Part shown: positions 5,553-26,705 of the stretch, one piece after another | How positions within the stretch are numbered: position 1 is the first letter of the stretch | Layout: every line of letters starts with the position of its first letter | Assembly (NCBI RefSeq): GCF_003086415.1 | Contig: NZ_QEFP02000010.1 | Coordinates: 1-28,372 of the forward strand | Direction: 5' to 3' | DNA from: Candidatus Nanobsidianus stetteri | GTDB lineage: Archaea; Nanobdellota; Nanobdellia; Nanobdellales; Nanobdellaceae | Length of the DNA: 28,372 nt | Translations under genes and position numbers: made by a program | Notes under the pieces: model-generated | What the model was told of the DNA's origin: nothing | The model's database searches: none | The model's input: only the letters and a program-made list of their open reading frames with translations

Positions 5553-5572
5553 ACTACACACTATGTAGGAAA

Positions 5573-8573: not shown

Positions 8574-8574
8574 T

Positions 8575-11900: not shown

Positions 11901-12367
11901 AGTTCTCTTTTTATTTCTACTAAAGCTAATGGAATACCATTTATAAATAATGTAAAATCAGGTTCAATAATATCTATACCTTTAAATTTTAATTCATGAG
12001 CATAAATAAATGAATTTTTTGATATATTATCATAGTCAATAAGTTTTAAATTAAGACTAGTAGATGGGTCTTCAGGATTATCAAAGGTTATACCATGTTT
12101 TATATAATCGGAAAATTCTGATAAAGTAGAATTTTGGATTTTTCTTTTTATTTCATTTAAAATCTTATTTATACTATTGTTAGATAATTTATTAAATATA
12201 TCCTTATTTATTTCTCTTATTTTTTTATCTAGTTCTTCCTCTATGATATATGAAGGAGATATACTATGTTCTTTAAGATCAGGATAAGAATTAGTAATAT
12301 TTTTCCATCCTAGCTTTTCGATATTCTTTATAAAGTGATTATGATCTACTGAAATCTCTAGTCTCAT
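8903..12367 (-). CDS. hsdR: Type I restriction enzyme, R subunit (1154 aa)
   Basis: N-terminal PD-(D/E)xK-like motif (IEPDFTLF..LALVEIKRE), helicase motif I LGSGKT and DEAH box LIDEAHRSQ. Its start overlaps the hsdS stop in a 4-nt ATGA. Confidence 0.92.
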   Translation of the reverse strand: MRLEISVDHNHFIKNIEKLGWKNITNSYPDLKEHSISPSYIIEEELDKKIREINKDIFNKLSNNSINKILNEIKRKIQNSTLSEFSDYIKHGITFDNPEDPSTSLNLKLIDYDNISKNSFIYAHELKFKGIDIIEPDFTLFINGIPLALVEIKRELPDTEYEALNQLSIYEIKAPELAKMTHIGFAIGKEKGYVPIFPNYDNKPREKNLQIWKIDGKDNIYDLLNPTTLLNFLKYYVFVIKSDNNYYRIAARYYQYRAAEKSFNRIKEYLDEKSNKNRGLIWHWLGSGKTYTMFFIAYKFLLNYSDRSPIIFIVVDRQDLEKQHSDTFSKIHDKLLTNYKNITKINSISELHHLIKQIKESEFSNGKTAPRGIYIVTIQKFQKGDLENEEREGIINLLCKLKDEYLDYLKTSNPSEYEKIKSSELNDKNKIEECFKLGAPNKKEILFLIDEAHRSQYGRLASVRRLAFPNAITIGFTATPILNEDKNTLKEFSYPDLNEFYLDAYSINDSIKDGATLPIIYKSIKEGENSIRFQLDENEIEKYIEEYLKNERKGKDISEYFEQDNINISDKQLKNIINEIKVFLLNPKRIDALAKYITEHILEDTQTIDINNKSKDFNIKIPEFRFKAMIVMANRKACVLMKRYLDKHLIETFGEQAKNWSEIVMTYNYNETDPDIRQYMEELRNKYGIKDFDEINSNIIDNFKNSSDPRILIVTDMLITGFDYPKLRVMYLDKPIYSHKLLQAIGRVNRPFPGKETGLVVDSIGLLPNLKKTLIKYNRLLSQQKDIKNIEEELETTLKDENTEEENFKKCFDKVKNNLKSLYVNGENLSIDLDELKRDIKSTENWIKKYEDKIRKIRFYYYFNNLDSIYDENLSKQISNLKSTINSLVKVIKFYNSLSPYNNSSTKIIYKDDIDTVKILLRLINSQQNKKIKGLNKLLNEILDLIYDKTEIERFKEDESAIINDKILEKMAEISEKEIKNKTYAYFLVIHKKIEEDIDIDPFYKKVSEILNKLEEDWIARKQDTKEILRQLKSIYDQITKYSENRNKMNDIDKILYSIRLALTEEFGESCKEINFNKLSDFLNKIKDMIKNKSFKDAKYIIDSKESELEKLLKIDIVKNCKNIKIEDRYIKVELVEKIKDQIIRWLYENDNKN

Positions 12368-13656
12368 TTTAGGTCACCTATTGCGATCGAATTTACCCTT
12401 ATCTTGCCCGTCATTAAAGCCGCTAATAATTTTTCTTTCAATTTCTTCATATAATCTAAATATTTTGTTTCAGTCTCAATTTTGTTATCGATTGTTGAAA
12501 GTATTTCTGCTATTTTCTTCTGTTCTTCTAATGGGGGTAGAGGTATCTTAATTGATTTTAATTTGGATGCTTGGATAGTTTTAATGGTAGTTTGTGATGA
12601 AATATTATCCAAATTTTTCTTAAAAAAATCTGATAGGAAAAACTGTTTAAAAAATGGAGGATAGCATCTTAAACGATTGAGCGAAATTTTCATTAAATTA
12701 GCCGTTATGTTTGCTCCTTCTAGAAATTTAGGAACTATAGCAACTTTTCCCAAAGTTCCTCGTACTGATAGAACAAAATCACCTTCATTTAAGATAGTTC
12801 TATAAAATCTTTTAGAAGTTTCTTTTGAAATAAATCTATATTTACTTAGATCGTCTTCAAGTTCTCCATTTTCTTTTATAAGTTCTGCTCTAACTTCCGG
12901 AACCCCTTCATTCATTCCTACATATTTAATATTGTAATAGGTAGGATACCTATATATATCTATAGCTATCTCTTCAAGCTTAACAATTTCCCAATTCTTT
13001 GGTATCTTTCCAATCTCTGTATCTTTAAATTCTTTATGCCATATTTTCCCAGTAATAAGTAAATTTAATGTTTTTTCTTTTAATATTTTTAGTTTTTCAA
13101 TTAAATTTGTTGTATCTATAATTATAGTATCTACAGTATTAAGAATTTCAACAATCTTTTTTTGTTCCTCTAATGGAGGGATAGGGACTGAGCTATTTAA
13201 AACTATTTCAAGTGTAAGATTGGGTTGAGTACTCTTTTTAATAAATTTACTCCAATAAGGTTTGAAGTATAGATACCAATAATATAAAAATTCTGTATCT
13301 ATAATATTCTTATTAGGTATTATTCCTACAATTGCTTGATTTGTCGTTACTGGTATTTTATTAATTGCAACAAATCCTATAGAACCATAAATTGTTAATA
13401 GTAAAGAATTCTCTGGAACTATCCAAGCATTAGAATTTTCTAATCCTTTTTCAGTAATGAATTCTTCAGTATTATATAGATACTTACTAGATTTCGTTAT
13501 ATCTTGTGCCTTTACAAATGGAATATTTCCGTTCCAATACTCGGGAACATTTGTTCTAGGTGTTCCTCCAGATTTTGCTTTTATTATAACATCTTTTAAT
13601 TTTCTTACTTCCCAATCTTTAGGAAATTTTATAAATTCATCATTATATTCACTCAT
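12364..13656 (-). CDS. hsdS: Type I R-M specificity subunit (430 aa, two target-recognition domains)
   Basis: Two TRD halves are each followed by a conserved helix: PIPPLEEQKKIVEILNTVD and PLPPLEEQKKIAEILSTID. It overlaps both hsdM and hsdR. Confidence 0.92.
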   Translation of the reverse strand: MSEYNDEFIKFPKDWEVRKLKDVIIKAKSGGTPRTNVPEYWNGNIPFVKAQDITKSSKYLYNTEEFITEKGLENSNAWIVPENSLLLTIYGSIGFVAINKIPVTTNQAIVGIIPNKNIIDTEFLYYWYLYFKPYWSKFIKKSTQPNLTLEIVLNSSVPIPPLEEQKKIVEILNTVDTIIIDTTNLIEKLKILKEKTLNLLITGKIWHKEFKDTEIGKIPKNWEIVKLEEIAIDIYRYPTYYNIKYVGMNEGVPEVRAELIKENGELEDDLSKYRFISKETSKRFYRTILNEGDFVLSVRGTLGKVAIVPKFLEGANITANLMKISLNRLRCYPPFFKQFFLSDFFKKNLDNISSQTTIKTIQASKLKSIKIPLPPLEEQKKIAEILSTIDNKIETETKYLDYMKKLKEKLLAALMTGKIRVNSIAIGDLK

Positions 13657-15205
13657 TTTTATTAACTATAATTCTAATTATCTCTTTCAATTCCTTTTCC
13701 TTTTCTTCCCTTTCTTTTTTAATCTCTTCTATATTTTTCCATAATTCTTTTATTTCATCTATACTTACAGAATTATTATTCTGAATTTTTGTAACATAAT
13801 TGGATACATTTAAATTGTAATCATTTTTTATTATTTCTTCTATGTCTACTACTCTAGAAAAACCAGGTATTGTTTTAAATTCTTTATATATTTCTACTAT
13901 TTTTTGTATATGTTCATTGCTTAGTTTATTTAATTTTCTAACTTCGAGATGTTTAACATAAAGATCTGTTGCATCTATAAAAAGAATTTTTCTTTTTCTA
14001 TCTTCTTGTTTTTCTTTATTAAATATTATTATTATTCCAGATGCTTGAGTATTATAAAATAATTTTTCTGGAAGTAGAATTATTGCTTCTATCAGATCAT
14101 CATTAACAATTTTTTCTCTGATTGCTTTTTCTTTTCCCTCTCTAAATAAAGCACCTTGATCTAGTATAACTCCAACTTTCTTTTTAGCATAATATAACAT
14201 CAACTGTATCCACGCCCAATCTGCAGTATTATTTGGGGGAAAGCCATATTTGTAAATTTTGCGTAAACTAATATCATTACCCAATATTTCTTCACCATAT
14301 CCATCTTGATTCCATGGAGGATTGGCTACAACATAATCAACTTTAAATTGTGAATTTTCATCAAACTTAAGCTTTTTTAGACTATCTCCTACCTGAATTT
14401 TTATTAAATTTTTTTCAATTCCATGTAATATAAAGTTTAATTTAGCTATTGCTGCCATATCTGGATTATATTCTTGTCCAAATAGACCAACTCTACTAAC
14501 TCCACCTTTTTCTTTTGTATATTTATAAGCTTCTATTAACATTGCTCCAGATCCCATGGCAGGATCTAATATATCAGACCCAGGTTCTGGGTCAATTAAT
14601 CTTATTAATAATTTAATTACTTCATATGGTGTATATACCTCTCCTTCTTTACCTTTGGTTGGAGCAAATTGAGCTAAAATATACATGTAAGCATCTCCTA
14701 TAATATCATAATCAACGTTAGAAAAATCCAACTTATCAAATATTCTTTTTATTTGATCGAGTCTGGCTTTATGTTCGCTTTCCAAATGTGAAATTCCTAA
14801 TTTATCTAATAGAGCTTTCATTAAATCTTTGCTTATAATATCAGGATTTAATTCAGCAAATTTTATTAAAGCATTTTGGAATTCTTCTAAATAATTACTT
14901 TTCTTAGTTATTTCTTTCCATGTTATTAATTCTCTATTATTTTCATCATACATCTTAAAATCAGAGTTTGCTATAATATAAGCTTCTTCTCTAGATAGTC
15001 CTTCTTCTTTAATTATTCGGTTAACTTCACTTTCATATCTATCACTTATGGCTTTATAGAAAAGAAATATTAATAGTGATCTATAATCTAAACCTGTTCT
15101 AATTAAATCAGCACCTTGCTTCAAAGTTGTAAATAAATCTTTTTTTGATAATTTAGTAGAATTATTTAAGTAATCATTAATTGTCTTTTCCATATATTTT
15201 ATCAA
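13649..15205 (-). CDS. hsdM: Type I R-M N6-adenine DNA methyltransferase subunit (518 aa)
   Basis: SAM-binding motif I DPAMGSGAML and catalytic motif IV VVANPPWN. It is the first gene of the overlapping hsdM-hsdS-hsdR operon. Confidence 0.92.
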   Translation of the reverse strand: MIKYMEKTINDYLNNSTKLSKKDLFTTLKQGADLIRTGLDYRSLLIFLFYKAISDRYESEVNRIIKEEGLSREEAYIIANSDFKMYDENNRELITWKEITKKSNYLEEFQNALIKFAELNPDIISKDLMKALLDKLGISHLESEHKARLDQIKRIFDKLDFSNVDYDIIGDAYMYILAQFAPTKGKEGEVYTPYEVIKLLIRLIDPEPGSDILDPAMGSGAMLIEAYKYTKEKGGVSRVGLFGQEYNPDMAAIAKLNFILHGIEKNLIKIQVGDSLKKLKFDENSQFKVDYVVANPPWNQDGYGEEILGNDISLRKIYKYGFPPNNTADWAWIQLMLYYAKKKVGVILDQGALFREGKEKAIREKIVNDDLIEAIILLPEKLFYNTQASGIIIIFNKEKQEDRKRKILFIDATDLYVKHLEVRKLNKLSNEHIQKIVEIYKEFKTIPGFSRVVDIEEIIKNDYNLNVSNYVTKIQNNNSVSIDEIKELWKNIEEIKKEREEKEKELKEIIRIIVNKNE

Positions 15206-15365
15206 TCTATTAAGGGTTTATAAAGATAAAAGTAATATTCATAATTAAAATAATTCTGCTCTAAAGATTAGAACATTATCCTATAGTTTTTATTGATATA
15301 AATTCTCTTATCTGATATGATCCACTATTTTATTATTGTTTAAATCTTTCTGAGAAAGAAAGTAA

Positions 15366-15554
15366 TTATTTGCATCAAAATTTATATCAAAATATAATGA
15401 ATATCAAGAAAGAGCAAAGAAATTATTAGAAAATGCATATCCTGAAATAAAGGATAAAGTAGAAATATTAGATGCAAATAAAATAAAAGGATTAAAAAAT
15501 ATACTAAGTAAATATGGAGATGAAATAAAGAAATTAATAAATTTGGGAAAGTAA
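15366..15554 (+). pseudogene. orphan protein-like C-terminal fragment without a start codon (..NEYQERAKKLLENAYPEIKDKVEILDANKIKGLKNILSKYGDEIKKLINLGK*)
   Basis: The frame is open from the stop at 15363 to the TAA at 15552-15554. Composition is charged and non-repetitive, but there is no ATG, GTG or TTG. The track's antisense ORF 15382..15591 is low-complexity. Confidence 0.3.
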
Positions 15555-15677
15555 ATATTAAGATCATACAATTTTTTAGTCCTTTAAACATATTATCTTA
15601 AGCTATAGATTTACATTATAAAGGGTAATTTAAACGATAATAAACTTTATATATGTATAATTACAATTGGTATAATT

Positions 15678-16060
15678 ATGATTATACAAAATTTCAAAGA
15701 TAGAAAAGAAGAATTAACCTAGGATATGTTTTTGAAGATATAGCAAAACAATTTTTAATAAAAAGCAAATTATTTAAATTTACAAAAATTGGAAAATGGT
15801 GGTATAAAGATAAAGAAATAGATTTGGTTGCATATAATGAAAATACAAAAGATATATATTTTATAGAATGTAAATATTCTGATAATATAAATGCAAAAGA
15901 AGTATTGGAAGATTTAAAAGAAAAATCTGAATATATAAATTTAGATATAAAAAATAAATACTATATAATATTTGCAAAGAGTTTTAAAGAAAGAATTAAA
16001 GAGAATAATTTACATTTATTTGATTTAAAAGATTTAGAAAATATAATATATCGAATATAA
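15678..16060 (+). pseudogene. gutted archaeal ATPase (Arch_ATPase/DUF234-type) gene: 14 N-terminal codons joined out of frame to the C-terminal DUF234-like tail
   Basis: MIIQNFKDRKEELT* (15678-15722) resembles the F-x-[DN]-R-x-x-E-L start of archaeal ATPases. From 15722 another frame reads GYVFEDIAKQFL..IGKWWYKDKEIDLVAY..FIECKYSD.., which is DUF234-like. The P-loop core is absent. Confidence 0.6.
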
Positions 16061-16167
16061 GAATTAAATAATTTGTTGTTATCAATTAATTTCATAATAT
16101 TTTATTAAATATTTTGCAAAATCATCAATTAAAAAATTTTCTAATTTGTTAGAATAATGTAATTATT

Positions 16168-16197
16168 TTTGAAATAAAAATCTAATAAGGGCTAAAA
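16168..16197 (-). terminator. conserved T-rich 3' flank module of cassette P4
   Basis: TTTGAAATAAAAATCTAATAAGGGCTAAAA lies below the stop at 16210. Confidence 0.45.
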
Positions 16198-16209
16198 AAT
16201 TATAGCTTA

Positions 16210-16758
16210 TTAATAATATTGGTAGTGTATATTAATATTAGGTTCTTCCTTTCCATGTCTAGAAGCAGTTACTGTTATACGCATTCTTTGCTGATCACCC
16301 ATATCTGTAAATGCTTCTGGCTTTGATACACCTAATGCAATTAGAACTAAATATTTCATACCATCTAGGAAATTAGCGATTTGGGGCAAATCAGATAATT
16401 CAAATGATGACTTACTGCTATAATGAGTGCAGCGAAGTTTATTAGGTGAAAATGTAGAGTTCGAATGACATTCAATTTCATCCTTGTCTTTTAGAGAATT
16501 AAGAACGTATAATGTAAAATCATAGTTATCGCACTGAATACCTCCATACATACCTTTACGACAATCCAAACTACCTGCTAAAGAGTATCCTCTCACCCCA
16601 AATTCTTTTATTCCAAAGTCGTTGGTAGCCTTTTCTTTCACATATGCAGCCGTTCCTAGTAATAAGCTATCTAGTTGGCTTCCAATAAGTTGTAACCCTT
16701 TATTAATTTTTTCTCCCTGTATTTTTTCAGGTTCTTTATATAGTTGTTGGCCGTCCAT
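16210..16758 (-). CDS. cassette-family protein P4 (182 aa from the conserved ATG; subtype C, 4-Cys)
   Basis: The ATG at 16758 gives MDGQQLY in the conserved CCATACTA context; the track start at 16770 is less likely. Cys ladder C-x9-C-x20-C-x12-C. The motifs YGGIQC, EIECHSNS and LRCTHYS are shared with P3. Confidence 0.8.
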   Translation of the reverse strand: MDGQQLYKEPEKIQGEKINKGLQLIGSQLDSLLLGTAAYVKEKATNDFGIKEFGVRGYSLAGSLDCRKGMYGGIQCDNYDFTLYVLNSLKDKDEIECHSNSTFSPNKLRCTHYSSKSSFELSDLPQIANFLDGMKYLVLIALGVSKPEAFTDMGDQQRMRITVTASRHGKEEPNINIHYQYY

Positions 16759-16777
16759 ACTATATATCATATGAGAA

Positions 16778-16791
16778 AAATTTATAAATTT
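16778..16791 (-). promoter_or_regulatory. TATA-like promoter core of P4 (AAATTTATAAATTT)
   Basis: Perfect 14-bp palindrome centred about 26 nt upstream of the ATG at 16758. Confidence 0.55.
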
Positions 16792-16900
16792 ATCCTACAC
16801 CATAGCTATATAATTGTAACAAACAAATATTTTTAAAAATAAAATGTTTGTGATTATAAATTCAAAAAATAAAAGATAATAATAGAATAATATAACTACT

Positions 16901-16930
16901 TTTGAAATAAAAAATCTATAAAGGCTAAAA
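16901..16930 (-). terminator. conserved T-rich 3' flank module of cassette P5
   Basis: TTTGAAATAAAAAATCTATAAAGGCTAAAA lies below the stop at 16936. Confidence 0.45.
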
Positions 16931-16935
16931 AATAG

Positions 16936-17613
16936 TTATGACTTAGAAGAGCGATTTAAGTACCACCAGGTAATATTAACATTAAATCCATTCTCATTAT
17001 ATTTAAATTCATTATTATATTCACTTTTATGTATACTTATTAATGGATTTGCTTTTATTTGATTGTCTGGATACCCCGAAGCCTTTATGACTATATTCAT
17101 ACTTTTATTACCCATATTTGTAAGTTCTCCTTGATCTAATATATCATATAATATATTTAGAGTTGATTTTTTTATATCTTCTGGGAAAGGACATTTTTGA
17201 AGAGGATCTGATAACGTAAATTTTTTACCATTATAATCAGAGCATATAATTTTATAAAGTAGTGGGTTTAAATGACATGAAAGTACTTTTCTATTACCTT
17301 TTTTATTATAATAAATATATATTGTAAGATAACCATATTCACCTTTATTATAAAAGTCTTCTATAAGATATGTAAGATAATTATATCCATGCCTCTTAAG
17401 TTTACTAGTAATTTCATTAAAATCAAAATATTTAGGGTAACTTAAACCTATGGATGCATCGAATATTCCTATTTCAGATATGCCAACCTTTTCTAGTGCT
17501 TTTTTAACCACTTCACTTAATGAGCTCTTTAGTTTTTTTATATCATATTCTAGTTCCCATTGTTTAATTTTTTTCATTAAATCGGAACTTTTATATAGAT
17601 ATTGACTGTCCAT
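16936..17613 (-). CDS. cassette-family protein P5 (225 aa; subtype A)
   Basis: MDSQYLY start, IKKLKSSLSEVVKKALEKVGISE, a Tyr-rich insert, KIICSDYNGKKFTLSDPLQKCPFPEDIKKSTLNIL and NMGNKS. It has the conserved flanks. Confidence 0.8.
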   Translation of the reverse strand: MDSQYLYKSSDLMKKIKQWELEYDIKKLKSSLSEVVKKALEKVGISEIGIFDASIGLSYPKYFDFNEITSKLKRHGYNYLTYLIEDFYNKGEYGYLTIYIYYNKKGNRKVLSCHLNPLLYKIICSDYNGKKFTLSDPLQKCPFPEDIKKSTLNILYDILDQGELTNMGNKSMNIVIKASGYPDNQIKANPLISIHKSEYNNEFKYNENGFNVNITWWYLNRSSKS

Positions 17614-17633
17614 ACTATTACATTATATAAGAA

Positions 17634-17647
17634 AAATTTATAAATTT
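17634..17647 (-). promoter_or_regulatory. TATA-like promoter core of P5 (AAATTTATAAATTT)
   Basis: Perfect palindrome centred about 27 nt upstream of the ATG at 17613. Confidence 0.55.
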
Positions 17648-18077
17648 ATCTTATACTATAGTTATATAATTGTAACAAACAAATATTTTTAAAAATAAAA
17701 TATCTATAATTATGAAATCAGGGCATAATAATTATTTGATAGTCTAATCGTCTTCTATTTAAGTTCTCTGGATAGTTGTTAAATAATTTAATATTAAAGT
17801 ATGATATAAAATTCTTGAAAATTAATGTATAAAATATAAGAATTAAATAACTTGTTGTCAATTCTTGAGTTAAATAGATTAGTATTATACTTAACCAGAT
17901 CTCTTTACTTTTTCGGCAAGTCAAAGTTCTAAGCGTTTTTGGCCAATCTGTAGTATGTTAGCATACTTCTTGAAGATAATCTCAAATAAAGATCTATTAT
18001 CATCTAGACTAGGTTATCTAGTCAGGCAACTAAGAGTTCTTTATCATAAAAGTTAAGGTACCTTACACTAAGTCTCT

Positions 18078-19166
18078 CTATTCTTTACTATCTCTTTTAG
18101 TGTCAACCGGTCTGCTATCTTCTTGCGAATGATGAATATCTTTTCCCAACCTCTTAAAGAGCTCTGAAATAGTTTCTATCGCAATCTTTCTTGCTATAAA
18201 AGCGTAAGGGTTATTTTTTTGGATCTCCATTACTATGTCCTCCTGAGAGCTCACTCTATTTATAATCCTCATCAGATCCTTGAAGGTCACAGTTTTCATG
18301 ACTTCTATCTCTTTCTTGACACCCAATACTTTTGCCAACTTATTGTAACTTTCCTTCAAGGCCAGCAAATAAAAGTGAGAAAGTACCTGAACTACTGCCA
18401 TAGCCTTATCGTGCTTCTCAGGGTCGCTAATGATAACATTCAATCCAGCCGACTTCCAGAAAGAGATAACGTCGCTTATGTCTTCACTAGTTTTAGAGGG
18501 TATGACTACTATATCCTCTCCTATTGGGTTTGATTGGGGACCGAAGAGAGGATGAGTGGAGACGAACCGGAAAGATTCCTCAATACTGATTCTCTCGAGG
18601 AAGTCAAAGTTGTCTCCCTTAACGGAGAGGATGTCCATCACAGTCTTTCCTCTTAATGCAGTCTTCAGGTTAAAGAAGTAATCTCCCTTGATTGCCTCGG
18701 GTGGTAGGGCTAAAATTATGTAATCCCCCCATTTCAGAGCTTCATTCTGGGGCATATAGACGCATCCAGATTCCTTTGCAACATTCTCAGCTTTATCAGA
18801 GTTCCTGCCCGTTATTACCACATTGTGTCCGGCTGAGGTGAGAAGCTTGGCCAAAGCTTTGCCCATGCCTCCATATCCTACTATAGTTACTCTCTTGGGA
18901 TAGGAATTGGTAAGCTGAACTTTCTTAGAGTAATACAAAATGGAGTTTACAAGTTCTCTTGCCAATTCTTCAGGAACATTCAGTTTTTTGGAATTTTCGA
19001 CCCAATTCTTTAGTACTTCTGCTTCCCTAGTCTCATCTTTAATAGGTAAACCTAACATATTCTTAATCTCAGCTATTTTTCTAGAAATCAAAAACCTTTG
19101 AGAAATTAAATAAAGGATCTGATAATCTATCTCATCTATTTTATCTCTCAGTTCTTTCAGGCTCAT
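18078..19166 (-). CDS. tyrA: bifunctional chorismate mutase / prephenate dehydrogenase (362 aa)
   Basis: N-terminal AroQ-type chorismate mutase helix (LRDKIDEIDYQILYLISQRFLISRKIAEIK). This is followed by a Rossmann VTIVGYGGMGKALA and the prephenate dehydrogenase signature STHPLFGP. Confidence 0.85.
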   Translation of the reverse strand: MSLKELRDKIDEIDYQILYLISQRFLISRKIAEIKNMLGLPIKDETREAEVLKNWVENSKKLNVPEELARELVNSILYYSKKVQLTNSYPKRVTIVGYGGMGKALAKLLTSAGHNVVITGRNSDKAENVAKESGCVYMPQNEALKWGDYIILALPPEAIKGDYFFNLKTALRGKTVMDILSVKGDNFDFLERISIEESFRFVSTHPLFGPQSNPIGEDIVVIPSKTSEDISDVISFWKSAGLNVIISDPEKHDKAMAVVQVLSHFYLLALKESYNKLAKVLGVKKEIEVMKTVTFKDLMRIINRVSSQEDIVMEIQKNNPYAFIARKIAIETISELFKRLGKDIHHSQEDSRPVDTKRDSKE

Positions 19167-19324
19167 TTTATTAACTCAATGTGGATTGGTTTATGATGCT
19201 CTCCAATCTTCTTATTCAGTGATATCCTCATCAAAGTTTTATTATTGATGGTCTGATGATTGGAACTGTTAGGTGCGTCGTTGTATCTGGAGTGAACAAC
19301 TATAAACTTCACTTCTAGGTTCAT
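19163..19324 (-). CDS. small ORF (53 aa, MNLEVKFIVVHSRYNDAPNSS..) translationally coupled to tyrA; possibly the tail of a truncated upstream gene
   Basis: Not in the ORF track. Its stop overlaps the tyrA start in an ATGA (19163-19166). It has the GC-richer composition of the island and begins exactly at the junction with the cassette remnant. Confidence 0.3.
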   Translation of the reverse strand: MNLEVKFIVVHSRYNDAPNSSNHQTINNKTLMRISLNKKIGEHHKPIHIELIK

Positions 19325-19443
19325 CACGATATGACAGTCTTTGATTGTGCATTTTCAGCCATTTCGTTTAATGAGTTCTCTAAATGTTTTATGGGAAAAT
19401 CAAATATTTTTTCAGAACTTTCATATAATTGTATATTTTCCAT
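19324..19443 (-). pseudogene. 5' remnant of a cassette-family gene (MENIQLYESSEKIFDFPIKHLENSLNEMAENAQ..)
   Basis: The N-terminus is homologous to family members (M-x-x-x-Q-L-Y-x-S-S, then ..SLNEM..). Homology stops after about 34 codons at the GC-rich segment. The proximal promoter module, about 50 bp including the palindrome, is deleted; only the distal module remains (19444-19500). Confidence 0.75.
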
Positions 19444-19557
19444 AATATTGTAATAAGCAAATATTTTAAAAAATGAAGTATCTATAATTATAAAGTTAAA
19501 AATAAAAATTAACGGCAAAATAATTATGAAATAATAATATAGTACAATCCAGAAGGG

Positions 19558-20181
19558 CTAATATAAGTTACAAAACATTGTAATAGTAGATCTACCATTG
19601 TAATAAATAAATATATTATCATCTATAATTATTACTGGATTCTCTATTCTTTGCTTATATGGATCTGTAGAAACAGTTGCTCTCATGTGTATATATTGAT
19701 TACCCATATGCATAGGTACAGCTGGATGTAATGTATTATGTATACTTCGAATTGAATCTTTTATACCCTCCCTAAAAGAAAAGCCTCTAGGATTTTGGGG
19801 AGAATCTTGGGGAGGATCATATAACTCAAACGATTTACCAATATAATCGGTACATTTAATTTTATAAGATATTGTGTTTGAACGACACTCAGCTAATTTA
19901 TATTTATCTTCATTATAAAAGGATGTTGTAATATCGTATCCGCACAACATAAGTCCATCACTATGCTTATGGCAACCCATATCTATTTCGGTAAGGTTTT
20001 TTCTTATTTCAGATAAATAAGTCTTTTCTTTTACTTCTTTAGTCATCCACTTTAATAAGTCCTCTAATTTTTTTATATGATCATTTAGTCTTTTTTTAGT
20101 TTCTTCTTCCGACAATCTATTAATTTTTTCCATTAAATCAGATATATTTTCAAAACTATTAACCGGTTGTTGATCATTCAT
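19558..20181 (-). CDS. cassette-family protein P6 (207 aa; subtype B, 4-Cys)
   Basis: MNDQQ start, IKKLEDLLKWMTKEVKEKTYLSEIR, cysteines at residues 70/80/99/110 (C-x9-C-x18-C-x10-C), HMGNQY and ENPVIII. Confidence 0.8.
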   Translation of the reverse strand: MNDQQPVNSFENISDLMEKINRLSEEETKKRLNDHIKKLEDLLKWMTKEVKEKTYLSEIRKNLTEIDMGCHKHSDGLMLCGYDITTSFYNEDKYKLAECRSNTISYKIKCTDYIGKSFELYDPPQDSPQNPRGFSFREGIKDSIRSIHNTLHPAVPMHMGNQYIHMRATVSTDPYKQRIENPVIIIDDNIFIYYNGRSTITMFCNLY

Positions 20182-20200
20182 ACTATTATACTATATAGAA

Positions 20201-20214
20201 AAATTTATAAATTT
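20201..20214 (-). promoter_or_regulatory. TATA-like promoter core of P6 (AAATTTATAAATTT)
   Basis: Perfect palindrome centred about 26 nt upstream of the ATG at 20181. Confidence 0.55.
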
Positions 20215-20308
20215 ATCTTATACTATAGTTATATAATTGTAACAAACAAAATTATAAAGTCAGAGACGGAAATTAATAACAAAATAATTATAGAATAATA
20301 TAATCATT

Positions 20309-20338
20309 TTTGAAATAAAAATCTAACAAAAGTTAAAA
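20309..20338 (-). terminator. conserved T-rich 3' flank module of cassette P7
   Basis: TTTGAAATAAAAATCTAACAAAAGTTAAAA lies below the stop at 20365. Confidence 0.4.
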
Positions 20339-20364
20339 AATTATAACTTAAGAGGAATATAAAT

Positions 20365-21045
20365 CTACAACAAAGTAATCTCAATCTTAAATATACCCCC
20401 ATCGTATTCAAATCTAAATTCATTATCATATGTACTTCTAGATATACTTATTTTTGGATCCTCTTCTGTTTGATTTTTTGAATTCATAGAAAAAATTGCG
20501 ATCATATTCTTATATCGATTACCAATATTCATAAGTTCCCCTGGATATAATATATCATAATATAATATATCTAGAATTTTCTTTTTTATATTTTTTGGGA
20601 AAGGACAACTTTGATGAGGATCTGATAAACTAAATGATTTGCCATCATGACTATCACATTTAATTTTATCAACTAGATAATCTAAACTACATGAAATTAT
20701 ATCATCTCCGCTATAAAAGTTTGCTGTAAAATAATTATATTTAATCTTATTATAAAAGTCTTCTGTAAGATAATTATTATTATAATTATTATAAAAGTAG
20801 TCTGTTATACTATAATATTCCTTCCCTATAGATCCATTAAAATTTTTATCTTCCCTGCGATGCAAACTCATGGATATATAGAATTCTTTTATTTTAGATA
20901 TATGAGCTATTTTTTCTACTTCTTTAGTCATTTCGTTTAACGAGTCCTTTAGTTCTTCTATATCATCTCTTAGTTTCCATATGTTAATTTTTTCTATTAA
21001 ATCAGATGTTTCTTTAGAACTTTTATTTAATTGTTGATTATACAT
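20365..21045 (-). CDS. cassette-family protein P7 (226 aa; subtype A)
   Basis: MYNQQLNKSS start, IEELKDSLNEMTKEVEKIAHISKIK, a Tyr/Asn-rich insert, KIKCDSHDGKSFSLSDPHQSCPFPKNIKKKILDIL, NIGNRY and EDPKISI. Confidence 0.8.
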   Translation of the reverse strand: MYNQQLNKSSKETSDLIEKINIWKLRDDIEELKDSLNEMTKEVEKIAHISKIKEFYISMSLHRREDKNFNGSIGKEYYSITDYFYNNYNNNYLTEDFYNKIKYNYFTANFYSGDDIISCSLDYLVDKIKCDSHDGKSFSLSDPHQSCPFPKNIKKKILDILYYDILYPGELMNIGNRYKNMIAIFSMNSKNQTEEDPKISISRSTYDNEFRFEYDGGIFKIEITLL

Positions 21046-21063
21046 ACTATTATACTATATAAA

Positions 21064-21077
21064 AAATTTGTAAATTT
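21064..21077 (-). promoter_or_regulatory. TATA-like promoter core of P7 (AAATTTGTAAATTT)
   Basis: The G-variant of the palindrome, centred about 25 nt upstream of the ATG at 21045. Confidence 0.5.
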
Positions 21078-21174
21078 GTATTATATTTTAGTTATGTAAA
21101 TTGTAATAAACAAAATTATAAAATCTCAAAGATAAAAATTAACAACTTAATAATTTTAGAATAATATAATCATT

Positions 21175-21203
21175 TTTGAAATAAAAAATCCATAATGGTT
21201 AAA
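21175..21203 (-). terminator. conserved T-rich 3' flank module of cassette P8
   Basis: TTTGAAATAAAAAATCCATAATGGTTAAA lies below the stop at 21214. Confidence 0.4.
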
Positions 21204-21213
21204 GACGTAAAAG

Positions 21214-21895
21214 TTAAAAGTACTCCAAATATGATGGTTTAAAGACATCAAAGTAAAAAGTAATCTGAATATAAGATCTACCATTGTAAAAGTTTATAGA
21301 ATTTTTACCTATTTTCATTTCTGGATTCGCTTTTGTTGGATGGTCTGGATTCGTAAAAGCATCTGTTTTTATATGTATAACCCTATATTCCAGCCTATAA
21401 CTTTCAAGTAACTTTCCAAACCTTAGCATACTAAAGGCAGATAGAATAGAGCTTTCTACTCTCTTTATGAAAGAAAAGGGATCTTCAAAATAAAATAAGG
21501 GCTCATAACCATCATGAGTGCATCCAAAATTATAAGGTGAACCATCCCAGCCTGTATAACACATAATTACTTTATTTTCTTCAATATGAAGGCGTGCATC
21601 AATATAACGTTTACAAGACAAAGACAAATCATCAAATTCTAGACATATCAAATCTATTAATGTATGAGCTTTTTTTATTTTAGATATATTAGCTTTCTCT
21701 TGTGCTTTTTTAACCATTTCGGATAATGAGGCATCTAGTTCGCCTATGGAAGATTTTACGTACTGCTTAAATTTTTCTTCTTTAGAACTTTTATATGAAT
21801 ATTGATCATATTTTTGACTTTTATCTATTTTTTTTTATATATTTATCAATTATTTTCATTAAATCGGGTTTTCTATATGGCTGTTGGCTGTCCAT
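21214..21895 (-). pseudogene. cassette-family gene P8 (subtype B) interrupted by a frameshift in an A9 tract; the track shows only the 167-aa downstream part (21214..21717)
   Basis: The ATG at 21895 in the conserved context gives MDSQQPYRKPDLMKIIDKYIKKNR*. The next frame continues KKIDKSQKYDQYSYKSS..SLSEMVKKAQEKANISKIKK.. into the annotated ORF. The frames switch inside the T9 run at 21828-21836 on the plus strand. Removing one base gives a 226-aa protein collinear with P1. Confidence 0.75.
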
Positions 21896-21913
21896 ACTAT
21901 ATATTATATAAAA

Positions 21914-21927
21914 AAATTTGTAAATTT
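21914..21927 (-). promoter_or_regulatory. TATA-like promoter core of P8 (AAATTTGTAAATTT)
   Basis: Centred about 25 nt upstream of the ATG at 21895. Confidence 0.5.
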
Positions 21928-22014
21928 ATCTTATATTATAATCATGTAATTGTAATTGACAAACATTTTTAAAAATAAAATATCTATAATTATAAATTTA
22001 AAGATGTAATCATT

Positions 22015-22040
22015 TTTGAAAAATTTAATAAAAGGTAAAG
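22015..22040 (-). terminator. diverged T-rich 3' flank module of cassette P9
   Basis: TTTGAAAAATTTAATAAAAGGTAAAG lies below the stop at 22053. Confidence 0.35.
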
Positions 22041-22052
22041 GTCATAAAAGTC

Positions 22053-22649
22053 TTAAATCTCCAAAATATTAGATCCACCGAGGGTTACATATATCTTGAT
22101 ATAGCGTATATCATCGTAATATTCAATTGTGTAACTGCTTTCATCTATTTTACGTTTACTTATTTCTGGATTCTCTTTTGTTTGCCCCTTTGAATCAGTA
22201 TATGCATCTAAATTTATAAGTATATCTCGATCATTCGATTTCTTAAGGACTTCTGGAAATGCTGCATAAAATATATTTAGAGAGTTATCTTTTATCTTTT
22301 CTAAGAAAGAAATGGTTTGAAGAGAATCAAATAACTCAACTGATCTATCGTTATCCTCAGTGCATTTAATTTTAGAAGGAAAATATGGCATGTCAGAATA
22401 ACACATAATTTCCCTATCCTTATAATAATGGTGCGATTTGACGTTATGTTCACACAGAATAGATTCGCTACCGGATTTATGACAATACGAATTTATTGAT
22501 GTAATAGAACTTTCTATTTTGGGTAGATTAAAGTTTTCTTGTACTTTTTTATACAAGTCGTCTAATAAGTCTCCCAAATCTTTTATGTGATCTTTTAATT
22601 TTTTAATATCCTCTTGTTCAGAACTTTCATCTGATGGTTGACCACTCAT
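22053..22649 (-). CDS. cassette-family protein P9 (198 aa; subtype B, 4-Cys)
   Basis: MSGQP start, IKDLGDLLDDLYKKVQENFNLPKIE, Cys ladder C-x9-C-x16-C-x12-C and ENPEIS. It has the conserved 5' flank. Confidence 0.75.
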   Translation of the reverse strand: MSGQPSDESSEQEDIKKLKDHIKDLGDLLDDLYKKVQENFNLPKIESSITSINSYCHKSGSESILCEHNVKSHHYYKDREIMCYSDMPYFPSKIKCTEDNDRSVELFDSLQTISFLEKIKDNSLNIFYAAFPEVLKKSNDRDILINLDAYTDSKGQTKENPEISKRKIDESSYTIEYYDDIRYIKIYVTLGGSNILEI

Positions 22650-22669
22650 ACTATTCTATTATATAAGAA

Positions 22670-22683
22670 AAATTTGTAAATTT
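22670..22683 (-). promoter_or_regulatory. TATA-like promoter core of P9 (AAATTTGTAAATTT)
   Basis: Centred about 27 nt upstream of the ATG at 22649. Confidence 0.5.
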
Positions 22684-23011
22684 ATCTCATATTTTAGTTA
22701 TGTAATTGTAACAAACAAAATTAGAAAATCAAAGATAAAAAATTAACAACTTAATAATCAAAGATCAATTTAGATTAAATGTAAAAAAGGTTTAGATTAT
22801 ATAATGGGATTATAAATGAAAATAAAAACTGTTTATAATGAAAATTATAAAATATATCTAAAATAATATATACAGTATTTAACAATATTAGATAGTAATA
22901 TTATAAAAAGAATTATTCAGGCATTGTTATATTTATCCTTTAATAAATATAATTATATGAATTTGGAAATAAATGATCATTTTTAAAATAAATTTTTATA
23001 ATATCCTTATA

Positions 23012-23060
23012 ATGAAGAAAAACTCATCGGCTGATAAATGATGAGGGTCTTGAGCTCAGA
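23012..23060 (+). ncRNA. candidate C/D box sRNA (degenerate terminal boxes)
   Basis: Layout: ATGAAGA (C-like, 23012-18), 12 nt, CTGA (D', 23031-34), 3 nt, ATGATGA (C', 23038-44), 12 nt, CAGA (D-like, 23057-60), then T6 (23061-66). The two 12-nt spacers match archaeal C/D architecture. The element is intergenic and locally GC-richer than its surroundings. Confidence 0.35.
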
Positions 23061-23090
23061 TTTTTTAATATTTTTATAAAATAATTATTA

Positions 23091-23312
23091 ATGGAGGAAG
23101 AATTATATGCAACAAAATATGAACTTTATATTTCTTTAATAATTACATTGATAACTATTGCAATTATATTGAGTACTCTATCTTATTCTCCAAATAAAAA
23201 TTTATACTATATGTCAACATTAATCATATTAATATTAATTATTATAGATGTCTTTGTATATTTATCATATAAAGGAAAAATACCTTTATATAAAGTAAAG
23301 AAAAAAGATTAA
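23091..23312 (+). CDS. small hypothetical membrane protein (73 aa, two hydrophobic helices)
   Basis: The ORF has two segments of about 20 hydrophobic residues and a basic C-terminus. Short ORFs in AT-rich DNA are uncertain. Confidence 0.35.
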   Translation: MEEELYATKYELYISLIITLITIAIILSTLSYSPNKNLYYMSTLIILILIIIDVFVYLSYKGKIPLYKVKKKD

Positions 23313-23644
23313 TTCTTTTTAGATTTCGCAATATCTAAAGCTCTTATTTTAACTAAATCTTCAATTCTATCATATAATAAAGATTCAGCTAGCTTATATT
23401 TATATTCAATATCTTTATATACTATATAAGCTTTCTTTATTTGATTATTCCTTATATATTCATCAAATATTTTCTTTCTTTCAACAATATCTTCCAAAAT
23501 ATTTAATATATCATTATCTTTAAATGACATTAATAATAACATCTTTGCCTCATTATCTTGTATTTTATTAAATAATTTTTTTGCATGTAATCTATACAAT
23601 CCAATTAACATGACTAAATTGTTAATCATTTTGTCAATCTTCAT
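23309..23644 (-). CDS. hypothetical helical protein (111 aa)
   Basis: The ORF lies 34 nt downstream of tyrS on the same strand. Composition is helical and charged. No motif recognised. Confidence 0.45.
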   Translation of the reverse strand: MKIDKMINNLVMLIGLYRLHAKKLFNKIQDNEAKMLLLMSFKDNDILNILEDIVERKKIFDEYIRNNQIKKAYIVYKDIEYKYKLAESLLYDRIEDLVKIRALDIAKSKKN

Positions 23645-23678
23645 AAATTATCATTGATAAAAAAATTTATAAATGTAA

Positions 23679-24953
23679 CTACCTAGTGATCTTAACAGAA
23701 TCTAATTCTTCTTTATATTTCTTACCAGGTCCTTCAGTAAAATATTTATATACAGGTTCTAATTTATTTGCTAACCATTTTCCAACAGCTTTCTTTAAAT
23801 CCAATGGGTGTATTTTTCCCTCAACCCAATCTTTTCTTAAATCCCATAAATTATTATATACTTTTCTTTCCCCAGTTTTTTCATTAATTATCTCAAATTC
23901 AATATCTTTATATGAATATTTATATAATTCATTAGATTCTTTATCAATTATTTTATATACATCATTCCAATTTATTTTATTTTTATTCTTTGATTCTTCA
24001 TATATATCATAATTTATTTTTTCAACATTTTCTACTTTATATAAATTATTTTCATATAAATATTTTATTATCCAATAATTTTCTTGATCCCTAAATATTA
24101 AATATTCAATTATTTCCCATATTGGATTGAATTCTAACTCTCTTTGAGGACAGAATGCTTTATTTATCTTATCAATAATTTCTGAAGGACTATCATGAAC
24201 AAATATTGCAGAACCTGGTATAGATTTTGACATTTTTAGTTCAGACAATTCTTCTTTAGCTTCTTTTATATTTCCAGATTTTAATTTTTGAAATGTTTCA
24301 TATGGCAATTGTAGGTTTGTTATTAATTGATGATGTACTGCAATTAAATTATAATTTATTTTATCAGCATATTCAATTGTAATTACGTGAATCTTTCTCT
24401 GATCAATTCCGGCATGTGCAATATTTATTTTTTGAAATATTATATCTGCAGCCTGCATTAATGGATATATTAAATTTGCAGATGGCATTGATTCTTCATA
24501 TTTTCTTCCCATAATTGTAATAGATCTTAATAATCTATTTAATGTAGTATTTTTTCCAATTTTAATTACTTCTGCCCAATAATCATCATTATATATTTCA
24601 GATGCCAAAACAAATTTTACTTTATTAGGATCCCCACCCAAAGATTTTATTGTTTGTTTCATTGCTTCAGTAAAATATCCCTTTGCAATTCTTTTAATTA
24701 CTTCAGGATCCCCACCCAATTTATTATTTATTACTGAATGCCAATCTGCTAAAAATACTTCTGTTTCTGCAAAATTCATAAAATCAATTAATTTATATCC
24801 AGATACAACTGCAGTACCTAAATGGACATATCCTGATATTTCATATCCTATATAATGCCTGAAATTATTTATCTTATTTGCCTTTTCTTCATTTAATACT
24901 TCTATTGCTGGCTTTTTCCATAAAAGTAATTTTATAATATTTTTATCCATCAT
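23679..24953 (-). CDS. tyrS: tyrosyl-tRNA synthetase, archaeal type, with low-complexity insertions (424 aa)
   Basis: HIGH-like HLGT, YPLMQAADI, AGIDQRKIHV, KMSKS, FNPIWEI and HPLDLKKAV are collinear with my recollection of M. jannaschii TyrRS. Confidence 0.85.
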   Translation of the reverse strand: MMDKNIIKLLLWKKPAIEVLNEEKANKINNFRHYIGYEISGYVHLGTAVVSGYKLIDFMNFAETEVFLADWHSVINNKLGGDPEVIKRIAKGYFTEAMKQTIKSLGGDPNKVKFVLASEIYNDDYWAEVIKIGKNTTLNRLLRSITIMGRKYEESMPSANLIYPLMQAADIIFQKINIAHAGIDQRKIHVITIEYADKINYNLIAVHHQLITNLQLPYETFQKLKSGNIKEAKEELSELKMSKSIPGSAIFVHDSPSEIIDKINKAFCPQRELEFNPIWEIIEYLIFRDQENYWIIKYLYENNLYKVENVEKINYDIYEESKNKNKINWNDVYKIIDKESNELYKYSYKDIEFEIINEKTGERKVYNNLWDLRKDWVEGKIHPLDLKKAVGKWLANKLEPVYKYFTEGPGKKYKEELDSVKITR

Positions 24954-25028
24954 AATTATTTATAACAAAAATTTTTGCCTTTTTAATACCGATCCATAAT
25001 TAAATTAATCTCAAGAAAAATTTATTAA

Positions 25029-26705
25029 TTATACTGAAAATGGTAATGATGAAGGTCCATTTATATAGAAATTCTTCAGTATTTCCCATACTTCAAAGAA
25101 ATCAAATATCTCATATTCAACCATCTTTTTTAATATCTTAGCTCTATAATCTAATATCTGATATATTTTTCTTTTATCATCAATTTTCATTAATGGTGCA
25201 ATTTTTCTTTCCAATATATAACTATTATATTTTCCAATAAACATATGTTTATCTTGTACGGAATTCCATGTAAATACATTCCTAACAGCAACCTTCTTTA
25301 TCTCAGCAATATATTTTTCTATTTCATATATATTTGTTACTCTTCTTTCATATCTTCCCTTTATTGTTACAGATGTTGTAAATACAGCAATATTTAAGTT
25401 ATCTATAAATGTAATTGGTATATTTATTGGTTCTCCAGTCAATCTTTCTATTAATGAAGTTATATTACCTGAGTGGAATGTTGTCATAACAGGATGACCT
25501 GTTTGCATTGCCTGGAATGCTACATATCCCTCTTTACCTCTTATCTCACCTATTAGTATATAATTTGGTCTAGATCTTAATGCTGCTCTTAATAGATCAT
25601 ACATAGATACATCTGCACTTTTTCCAACTTCTCTTGTAATTAATCTTTGCCATATATTATGTGGTATATTTAATTCAGGTGTATCTTCTACAGAATAAAC
25701 CTTTGCATCAGGTTTAATAAATGTAGCTAATGCATTTAATAATGTCGTTTTTCCTGATGCAGTTTCTCCAGATACTACTATGTTCATTCCATTTTCAATT
25801 GCTAGCCATAAATAAGCAGCTTCCTCCGGAGAAATTGTACCAAAAGAAATTAATTGTGTTATACTCAATGGTTTTGCAGAGAATTTTCTTATTGTAAATG
25901 AAGATCCATGCAAAGATATATCTTTACCATATATAAAATTAACTCTTGATCCATCTGGTAATATTGCATCAACTATTGGTCTTGTTTCTGATGCTGGCCT
26001 ATCAACTATTTGTGAATATTTAATTATATATTTATTTAAATCTTCTTCATTTTTAAATTCTCTATTTGTTTTAAGCATTCCAAATATTTTATGTACAACA
26101 TAGATTGGACCTAAACCCAATATATGGACATCCTCTAAATAAGGATCTCTTAAAAATGGTTCTAAAAAACCATAACCAAATCTTTCCCTAATTAAGAAAT
26201 ATAATAACTTATCATATTCTTCTTTATTTTTTATATATACTTTATCAGAAAATAATTTTCTTCTTTGAAAATCAATAACCTTATTAAATAGATCAATTAT
26301 GTACCTTCTTACTTCTTCAACATTATTAAAGTTAATATCTTCTATTGCATATTTAACAATTTTTGTTTGTATTTGTTCCAATTTTTTCTTTTCATTATCA
26401 TTTAATTCAGGTTCTATTACATTATATAATGTTTCTCCAGATGGTAATTTATATATATGAATAAATATCGGATCTCCAACAGGATATAATATATTAAATT
26501 CAGTTCTAGATCTTAAAGAAAAATCTAGAGAAGTCATCCATTCGGGAGGACCAATTTTTAATGATATTTCATTAATATAATTTCTAAGATGCTCATATTT
26601 ATTCAATGCTTCATCAAATGATGTAGTTATATCATTAGTTATTACTTTTGCATTTTCCCTTTTTATTATATATTCTTGTTTTGTTTCTTGTATTTGTTCA
26701 GGCAT
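25029..26705 (-). CDS. arlI: archaellum assembly ATPase ArlI/FlaI (558 aa)
   Basis: Type II/IV secretion ATPase fold markers: Walker A GETASGKTT, Walker B ILIGEIRG and His-box TGHPVMTTFH. Its start overlaps the arlH stop. Confidence 0.9.
   Translation of the reverse strand: MPEQIQETKQEYIIKRENAKVITNDITTSFDEALNKYEHLRNYINEISLKIGPPEWMTSLDFSLRSRTEFNILYPVGDPIFIHIYKLPSGETLYNVIEPELNDNEKKKLEQIQTKIVKYAIEDINFNNVEEVRRYIIDLFNKVIDFQRRKLFSDKVYIKNKEEYDKLLYFLIRERFGYGFLEPFLRDPYLEDVHILGLGPIYVVHKIFGMLKTNREFKNEEDLNKYIIKYSQIVDRPASETRPIVDAILPDGSRVNFIYGKDISLHGSSFTIRKFSAKPLSITQLISFGTISPEEAAYLWLAIENGMNIVVSGETASGKTTLLNALATFIKPDAKVYSVEDTPELNIPHNIWQRLITREVGKSADVSMYDLLRAALRSRPNYILIGEIRGKEGYVAFQAMQTGHPVMTTFHSGNITSLIERLTGEPINIPITFIDNLNIAVFTTSVTIKGRYERRVTNIYEIEKYIAEIKKVAVRNVFTWNSVQDKHMFIGKYNSYILERKIAPLMKIDDKRKIYQILDYRAKILKKMVEYEIFDFFEVWEILKNFYINGPSSLPFSV

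Follow-up and report, generated by a model that had tools for sequence, protein, structure and literature searches.

In published descriptions, nanoarchaea of the Nanopusillus/Nanobsidianus type are obligate ectosymbionts of Crenarchaeota that are almost without biosynthesis, and Nanoarchaeota have been described as drawing all building blocks from the host, with host–symbiont gene exchange being almost nil (PMC3655853, PMC4935971). AroD is one of only three genes of 'Candidatus Nanobsidianus stetteri' Nst1 listed as candidates for direct transfer between Nst1 and its host, Acd1 (Podar et al. 2013, PMC3655853). Genes have also passed laterally between Nanoarchaeum equitans and Ignicoccus hospitalis (cited as ref. 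7 in PMC6142677), again an ectosymbiotic nanoarchaeon and the crenarchaeon that hosts it. Four proteins that Thermocladium has in common with clade-2 Nanoarchaeota (PMC6142677) represent the same kind of exchange, but without functional annotation. Here we analysed positions 1 to 28,372 of contig NZ_QEFP02000010.1 of Candidatus Nanobsidianus stetteri (hereafter the window), in which a G+C-richer segment carrying tyrA, encoding a bifunctional chorismate mutase/prephenate dehydrogenase, lies inside an array of tandem paralogous genes. This segment is almost certainly a fragment of an aromatic-amino-acid operon from the Acd1 ('Acidicryptum nanophilum') lineage of Sulfolobales that was transferred to the nanoarchaeon. 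Unlike the N. equitans and Thermocladium cases, this locus directly reveals which operon the DNA came from, where its two junctions lie, how its flanks have decayed and how far it has ameliorated, and the enzymatic annotation is clear.

The aroD case is the nearest parallel. We recovered aroD in Nst1 (APJZ01000001, L034 10001-10627) and in the single amplified genome AB-777-O03 (QEFH01000001, L036 10001-10627), and both copies share 82–84% nucleotide identity with aroD of Acd1, with 40% G+C versus 56% and 104 GC-to-AT changes versus 5 in the opposite direction. Like tyrA, nanoarchaeal aroD derives from the same donor lineage and the same operon (aroD being its last gene and tyrA its third), displays similar amelioration and has an intact open reading frame (ORF) in many variants. 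Unlike tyrA, it is flanked by a dNK-like kinase gene and a PAP2 gene and does not lie in a paralog array; it also encodes a different enzymatic step that is not adjacent to that of TyrA in the pathway, and tyrA is not mentioned in the 2013 study (PMC3655853). Judging from these comparisons, these symbionts have retained two genes that are not neighbours in the host operon, both ameliorated to a similar degree, tyrA adding a second relic of that operon to the 2013 aroD case. Literature searches on (terrestrial) Nanoarchaeota found no report of tyrA or of either enzyme activity, chorismate mutase or prephenate dehydrogenase. Host-to-symbiont transfer is a known kind of event, of which the tyrA instance appears to be unreported.

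The recipient is assigned through the right-hand end of the window (22,950-28,372), which contains the genes for tyrosyl-tRNA synthetase and the archaellum proteins flaI, flaH and flaD/E. This block is syntenic with 'Candidatus Nanopusillus acidilobi' 7A, Nst1 and several Nanopusillus metagenome-assembled genomes (MAGs) at 91–95% nucleotide identity, and the FlaI protein shares 94–97% identity with those of N. acidilobi 7A, Nst1 and Nanopusillus MAGs, placing the recipient by sequence among Nanopusillus/Nanobsidianus-type nanoarchaea. Synteny to all related genomes stops at approximately 22,950, and leftwards of this point the contig is a mosaic.

The foreign segment occupies positions 17,891-19,326 (±3) within the second of two paralog arrays, the coordinates of which are listed in the table together with those of the other features. 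Its G+C content (38.3% over 17891-19325) compares with a mean of 24.4% (SD 2.1, maximum 29.0; z = 6.6) for all other windows of 1,435 nt in the contig, which has 25% G+C as a whole and ~24% outside the segment. An earlier model-made prediction for this stretch, drawn from its letters alone (the original prediction), had given 43–50% G+C, which holds for the core, where 100-nt windows reach 44–50% between flanks of 14–24%, and not for the segment as a whole. It had also proposed a composition and codon-usage check. This was run here across the contig and agrees with a foreign origin, as the G+C at third codon positions (GC3) of tyrA is 0.43 versus 0.11–0.24 in 17 other ORFs. On the left side, a homology between 17745-17890 and 3705-3855 had been described as ending at about 17891; blastn recovered it as a longer match between an inter-cassette module and a spacer of array 1, which ends at 17887. 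This module lacks the last ~57 nt that in array 1 reach the stop codon of the next gene. On the right side, blastn homology to the donor begins at 19325, and homology to the paralog family spans 19328-19443, including a copy of repeat family D3 at 19328-19392. The expected remnant of a family gene was indeed present there, with 39 codons before a TGA stop instead of the predicted 34 or so. Comparison with the homologue in array 1 suggested that ~610 bp of the cassette were replaced, close to the ~600 bp anticipated.

The way in which the segment was joined also agrees with the illegitimate recombination suggested in the original prediction, since microhomology at the junctions does not exceed ~4 nt and signs of an integrating element were missing. 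Specifically, no tRNA gene was present in the window, no integrase or transposase domain was detected among the ORFs scanned around the segment, and the junctions carried no flanking or att-like repeat. In these features the segment does not resemble a classical genomic island or integrative element. The recipient array likewise does not appear to be an integron-type gene-cassette array: no integrase was found and its units are divergent paralogs of one family, each with its own promoter-like module, while attC-like structures were not specifically searched for.

The complete bifunctional enzyme expected from the original prediction was supported by profile searches, in which all three domains exceeded their Pfam cut-offs: CM_2 (PF01817, residues 6-84; 70 bits versus 27), PDH_N (PF02153; 43.7 versus 26.5) and the dimerisation domain PDH_C (PF20463; 29 versus 22). 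The chorismate mutase part also scored above the cut-off of the archaeal NCBIfam model TIGR01791 (CM_archaeal; 73.6 versus 66.95), and its residues R7, R24, K35, D44 and R47/E48 are kept. In the dehydrogenase part, the nucleotide-binding GxGxxG motif is present as GYGGMG (residues 97-102), and this motif together with SVK, THPLFGP and HD..Q..SH aligns to the soybean prephenate dehydrogenase structure 5T95. Within the HP(L/M)FGP motif, which contains the catalytic His, H205, P206, F208, G209 and P210 are invariant among the nanoarchaeal copies. All seven distinct nanoarchaeal-type TyrA sequences are full-length (362 aa). Near the C-terminus, an LVDP motif (residues 353-356; 18078-18100) is at least 90% conserved in the donors, in which the overlapping DAHP synthase gene (see below) starts at this place; the position is variable among the nanoarchaeal copies (PVDT in the window), consistent with a loss of the constraint that the overlapping gene may have imposed.

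Outside the seven-member nanoarchaeal cluster, the closest TyrA relatives form one cluster, at 82–83% amino acid identity, and are encoded on contigs of 52–55% G+C, within an operon. This donor operon has the gene order TKT_N-TKT_C-tyrA-aroG-aroB-aroE-aroC-aroK-aroA-aroD, in which TKT_N and TKT_C encode transketolase subunits, aroG 3-deoxy-D-arabino-heptulosonate 7-phosphate synthase (DAHPS, or DAHP synthase) and aroB 3-dehydroquinate synthase (DHQS). Positions 17979-19205 of the window share 83–85% nucleotide identity with operon contigs L002 and L021-L024, and the window tyrA shares 84.4% nucleotide and 82.9% amino acid identity with the copy on 'OBHost_10009', an 848,744-bp contig (L032) from JGI sample 3300000539 that is also in NCBI. 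The name and source of this contig fit the assembly of the Obsidian Pool host Sulfolobales Acd1 (PMC3655853), the genome of which has 1.51 Mb and 52% G+C (Podar et al. 2013, PMC3655853). PVU73078.1 from 'Sulfolobales archaeon SCGC AB-777_J03' falls into the same 90% cluster as the OBHost copy, and AB-777-J03 is labelled Acidicryptum in the supplement of Jarett et al. 2018 (PMC6142677). Nst1 is known to live on Acd1/'Acidicryptum nanophilum', which has also been co-sorted with clade-1 Nanoarchaeota (PMC6142677).

A neighbour-joining (NJ) tree of TyrA, using Kimura distances and bootstrap resampling, gave 100% bootstrap support to the clade of nanoarchaeal copies, to that of Acd1-type copies and to the two combined, all nested among Sulfolobales-type TyrA, with the nanoarchaeal clade as sister to the sampled Acd1-type clade and not within it. 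A search of 5.8 billion proteins returned no nanoarchaeal TyrA homologue beyond the seven-member cluster. The original prediction had also proposed comparing the locus in related genomes; tblastn gave no tyrA hit in the 13 loci compared (L003-L015), which lie next to the flaI block and come from 12 assemblies of related nanoarchaea with synteny there, in agreement with an acquisition. Of the earlier description of the segment as a foreign or relocated operon piece, the first alternative is thus borne out by the identity to the Acd1-type operon and by relics of both neighbouring genes, and the second is not. Horizontal acquisition of a biosynthetic gene into the array, as proposed, is likewise supported by the composition, the tree and the operon relics.

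These relics flank tyrA in the gene order of the donor, with both gene overlaps preserved. Upstream of tyrA, codons 98-137 of TKT_C lie at 19205-19324, as evidenced by tblastn (50% identity, E = 4e-8) and by blastn of 19208-19325 against positions 3353-3470 of L021 (~77%), and the last ~13 codons show a frame shift that a 2-nt indel restores. The original prediction had pointed to a 53-aa ORF coupled to tyrA by an ATGA overlap. This ORF exists, but it is the donor transketolase relic, and the ATGA overlap was already present between the two genes in the donor operon. As 20 of its changed codons are nonsynonymous and only 2 synonymous, and the probability of its remaining open by chance is 0.44, the idea of a leader ORF preserved so that translation of tyrA is coupled to it, suggested by its being open in all five contigs, was not supported; the 53/54-aa ORF is best read as a neutral relic of the transketolase gene, not a gene in its own right. 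Downstream, the DAHP synthase relic, detected with tblastn of the L002 and L032 DAHPS and by blastn of 17912-17975 against L021 5525-5590 (80%), ends at 17,894 and overlaps the 3' end of tyrA by ~62 nt, as in the donor. Because both relics contain internal deletions (~490 bp and ~350 bp), at least 2.24 kb of host DNA would originally have entered. No other relics of the aro operon were found in the window or in 17 nanoarchaeal loci.

Foreign segments reportedly drift to the base composition of the recipient, as in the amelioration model of Lawrence and Ochman. As expected from that model, third codon positions of tyrA have changed most, GC3 having fallen from 0.68 to 0.43. The present case differs from amelioration in general by an unusually large contrast in G+C (52–55% versus 24%) and by a close donor relative that permits site-by-site polarising. 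Between the donor type and the window, tyrA has 152 GC-to-AT (S>W) versus 17 AT-to-GC (W>S) changes (p = 3e-28), and 63 versus 4 changes, respectively, were polarised with outgroups to the nanoarchaeal branch. G+C content has drifted from 52% to 40%. The transfer is readable end to end: the donor operon, two breakpoints, later deletions, site-by-site drift in G+C and selective survival of one enzyme gene. For a reduced archaeal genome, the case provides a naturally polarised measure of the biases in mutation and in deletion.

That survival was examined against neutral expectation. When the 180 observed substitutions were placed at random, 5,000 simulations produced 6.1 stops on average and left the frame uninterrupted in only 0.02% of cases. 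None of 59 family sites that are at least 90% conserved shows a fixed change in nanoarchaeal TyrA, and replacements fall at variable sites (mean conservation of 0.38 at replaced sites versus 0.56 overall). Divergence from the donor is 27% for the TKT_C relic versus 16% for tyrA, and the 1,089 bp of tyrA are free of indels in all five lineages compared, in contrast to the deletions, frameshifts and stops on either side. Divergence at third codon positions is 6.6–8.5%, versus 3–4.7% at positions 1 and 2. The ratio of nonsynonymous to synonymous substitution rates (dN/dS) is 0.125 between the window and the donor type (L002); within the nanoarchaeal clade, the comparison of the window with L001 gives 0.39 (Fisher p = 0.002). 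As tyrA stays open under a stop-prone GC-to-AT drift with its conserved residues kept, these data indicate that purifying selection has acted on the gene in the nanoarchaeon, if less strictly than in the host, and the predicted enzyme is probably functional there.

Host and symbiont are physically attached and were sequenced together, the repeated cassettes are hard to assemble, with related contigs breaking there, and the risk of host Sulfolobales reads being mis-joined to, or contaminating, a nanoarchaeal contig was raised in the review of PMC3655853. However, the segment is not host sequence, being only ~84% identical to every host-type copy, those copies being 96–99% identical to each other, and it shows intermediate G+C (40%), a 152:17 bias in substitutions and flanking host genes that have been deleted and pseudogenised. 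Moreover, four contigs from other metagenome assemblies (L001, L029, L030 and L031, from JGI 3300003607, 3300045866, 3300045864 and ENA ERZ27249339) align to 17,608-19,539 across both junctions at 93–94% identity with the same GC profile, the cassettes beyond the junctions being different. Because four independent metagenome contigs have both junctions, the segment is not an assembly chimera, and the mutual divergence of 5–7% excludes the derivation of all five contigs from one mis-assembled reference; we consider an artefact of assembly or binning practically negligible. From this comparison the transfer is taken to be a single event. Equally little probability attaches to a native gene, either ancestral or relocated within the same genome, that happens to have a higher G+C, or to a transfer from nanoarchaeon to host; the operon relics and the polarity analysis refute this reading. 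Highly expressed or conserved genes can be somewhat GC-richer, such as the asnA-like gene of the window with 32% G+C, but the GC3 of tyrA is far beyond the native range, the gene belongs to a complete ten-gene operon in Sulfolobales-type genomes of which the window has pieces of exactly its two neighbours, the polarity of the substitutions reveals a GC-rich ancestry, and TyrA is nested within the diversity of Sulfolobales and absent from related nanoarchaeal loci.

The full reading, comprising transfer, decay of the flanks and retention of a functional tyrA, is very probable, and several points weigh against it. The label 'host-derived' rests on the donor lineage being a documented host of close relatives of this organism, not of the organism itself. 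As the closest donor is only ~84% identical, the DNA may really have come from a sister lineage of Acd1 that has not been sampled, in line with the sister position in the tree. The alternative that the DNA came from another, unsampled Sulfolobales-type archaeon, or through a virus or plasmid, and not from the symbiont's own host, is nevertheless quite improbable. No closer lineage was found among the 5.8 billion proteins, the next relatives being 64% and 58% identical, and most of the 16% divergence consists of GC-to-AT changes on the nanoarchaeal branch, so that the ancestral sequence would have been much closer to the Acd1 type. Assemblies that carry the JGI project number 20129 (JGI20129) in their names include contigs of the donor type as well as of the nanoarchaeal type, no relative of tyrA was found in the viral contig collection, and Acd1-type cells were co-sorted with these nanoarchaea (PMC6142677). 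The other doubts concern function. A dN/dS within the clade about three times that of the donor path means relaxed constraint, and the gene could be in early decay; some of the 180 simulated substitutions fell on the donor branch and under selection there; the proximal promoter of the cassette is deleted upstream of the remnant; and as published nanoarchaeal genomes lack the shikimate pathway, a lone TyrA would be without an obvious substrate or outlet in the cell. The relaxed dN/dS, the deleted promoter and the missing pathway would suit a real transfer in which tyrA is a functionless passenger, still intact for lack of time and bound to decay, as would its not being found at the Nst1 and N. 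acidilobi loci examined and the neutral survival of short ORFs, for which the open TKT_C relic is an example. Such a passenger is unlikely, given that a frame of 362 codons so rarely stays open in simulation, that tyrA has acquired no indel while its flanks decayed and is less diverged than the relic, that conserved residues are kept with replacements concentrated at variable sites, and that all seven known variants are full-length.

Under the favoured reading of a host-derived and retained tyrA, host DNA reaching at least from TKT_C codon 98 to DAHP synthase codon ~194 would have entered one gene of a hypervariable array by recombination at the level of microhomology, replacing ~0.6 kb of a cassette. 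The segment has since been drifting towards the AT-rich composition of the recipient and the truncated flanking genes have decayed, leaving tyrA alone at full length. Transcription may be driven by what is left of the cassette promoter, namely its distal TATA-like element, or by read-through. An alignment of ten upstream regions confirmed the predicted loss of the proximal promoter module (~52 nt), which precedes all nine full-length family genes and is deleted before the remnant. This 52-nt deletion (19444-19470 region) has brought the distal TATA-like element (TTTTTTAAAATA) to ~20-28 nt from the ATG of the remnant, so that it could serve as a replacement promoter for the string of remnant, relic and tyrA.

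TyrA converts chorismate to prephenate and further to 4-hydroxyphenylpyruvate, and a transaminase is needed to finish tyrosine. Since the recipient would lack the shikimate pathway, according to published nanoarchaeal genomes, the substrate of TyrA would have to come from the host. It is possible, though doubtful, that the predicted enzyme uses chorismate or prephenate from the host and thereby raises the symbiont's supply of tyrosine or 4-hydroxyphenylpyruvate. If true, pathway intermediates (chorismate, prephenate), not only finished amino acids such as tyrosine, would cross the contact site between nanoarchaeon and host, which is a testable prediction. In the patchwork of the mealybug with Tremblaya and Moranella, a reduced symbiont similarly keeps or gains isolated steps of amino-acid pathways while a partner encodes the rest. 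That system differs in that endosymbionts live in a eukaryote and transfers went mostly to the host nucleus, whereas here an ectosymbiotic archaeon gains a gene of an archaeal host and the sharing of intermediates is only inferred. Circumstantially, TyrA of the host is ~2-fold up-regulated with the symbiont attached in the N. equitans system (PMC3149612).

Tyrosine accounts for 5.5–7.6% of residues in the sampled nanoarchaeal proteins versus 3.5% in Acd1 proteins, and asparagine for 6.1–7.5% versus 2.9%. The only amino-acid-forming enzymes of the window are AsnA and TyrA, and would therefore top up amino acids over-used by an AT-rich proteome. That host-derived TyrA, and AroD in related strains, were kept because a genome of 24% G+C demands about twice the Tyr and Asn of its host (52–55% G+C) is a speculative and rather unlikely idea. 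If true, the mismatch in base composition between the partners would influence the choice of host genes that are taken up and kept by a reduced symbiont.

Table. Coordinates of the features in the window (contig NZ_QEFP02000010.1)
Feature	Coordinates	Strand	Remarks
Array 1	2,911-5,561		tandem paralog-family genes
Type I restriction-modification (R-M) operon	hsdR 8903-12367; hsdS 12364-13656; hsdM 13649-15205		
Array 2 (recipient locus)	16210-22649	(-)	six divergent paralog-family genes in tandem plus the disrupted one
Inter-cassette module, upstream region of family gene 16936-17613	17614-17887	(-)	blastn to 3565-3847: 79.8% over 287 nt, E = 2e-60
Left junction, foreign DNA/cassette	17888-17893		at most ~4 nt microhomology (GTAT)
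DAHP synthase relic, pseudogenised	17891-18139	(-)	codons 1-49 with stops and a frameshift, ~350-bp gap relative to donor, codons ~167-194
tyrA, bifunctional chorismate mutase (AroQ/CM_2) and prephenate dehydrogenase	18078-19166	(-)	intact, 362 aa, 39.6% G+C
Transketolase C-terminal-subunit relic	19163-19327	(-)	TKT_C codons 98-137, ~490-bp gap relative to donor, then last ~13 codons
Right junction, cassette/foreign DNA	19325-19328		at most ~4 nt microhomology (TGAA), from comparison of the window, donor L021/L027 and family paralogs
5' remnant of paralog-family gene	19324-19443	(-)	39 codons (MENIQLYESSEKIF...), then TGA stop at junction
Distal promoter module of disrupted cassette	19444-19540	(-)	member of repeat family D1; same sequence in L001, L029 and L031

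The two arrays together contain nine full-length family genes and one remnant, encoding proteins of 167–273 aa with a helical and charged N-terminal region, two near-invariant Cys residues and a mean amino acid identity of 30%; no significant match to this family was obtained in Pfam or NCBIfam searches. Each full-length gene is preceded by a conserved two-part promoter-like upstream module. At the syntenic site of other Nanopusillus/Nanobsidianus genomes, from none detected to three copies of family genes occur (with members in L006, L007 and L011), versus seven here, and the locus looks hypervariable. The tyrA case shows that foreign DNA can land and persist in these tandem paralog arrays.

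A direct repeat of 237 nt with 99.2% identity (2104-2340 and 5883-6119) brackets array 1 and takes in the last 67 codons of a gene for an Lrp/AsnC-type regulator (5919-6377); the entire array may thus have been duplicated as a segment, or inserted, in recent times. Two pieces of the array-1 flank that lie ~100 nt apart (2347-2507 and 2613-2907) recur at 8420-8577 and 15908-16202 with 89–90% identity, where they are separated by 7.3 kb containing the R-M operon, between the two arrays. The R-M system thus has the appearance of an island that entered a duplicate of this flank. The entire stretch 8577-22968 is absent from N. acidilobi 7A (L004).

The gene for tyrosyl-tRNA synthetase (23679-24953, minus strand) lies 4.5 kb away from the acquired tyrA. 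This closeness is probably a coincidence, because the synthetase gene belongs to the conserved syntenic block. On the plus strand, 6581-7513 encodes an archaeal asparagine synthetase A, resembling asparaginyl-tRNA synthetase (AsnRS) without the anticodon-binding domain (NF005054; 414 bits versus a cut-off of 309). The gene is divergent from that of the Lrp/AsnC-family regulator (minus strand), the same arrangement as in asnC-asnA of E. coli, and its product is among the very few amino-acid-forming enzymes of these symbionts.

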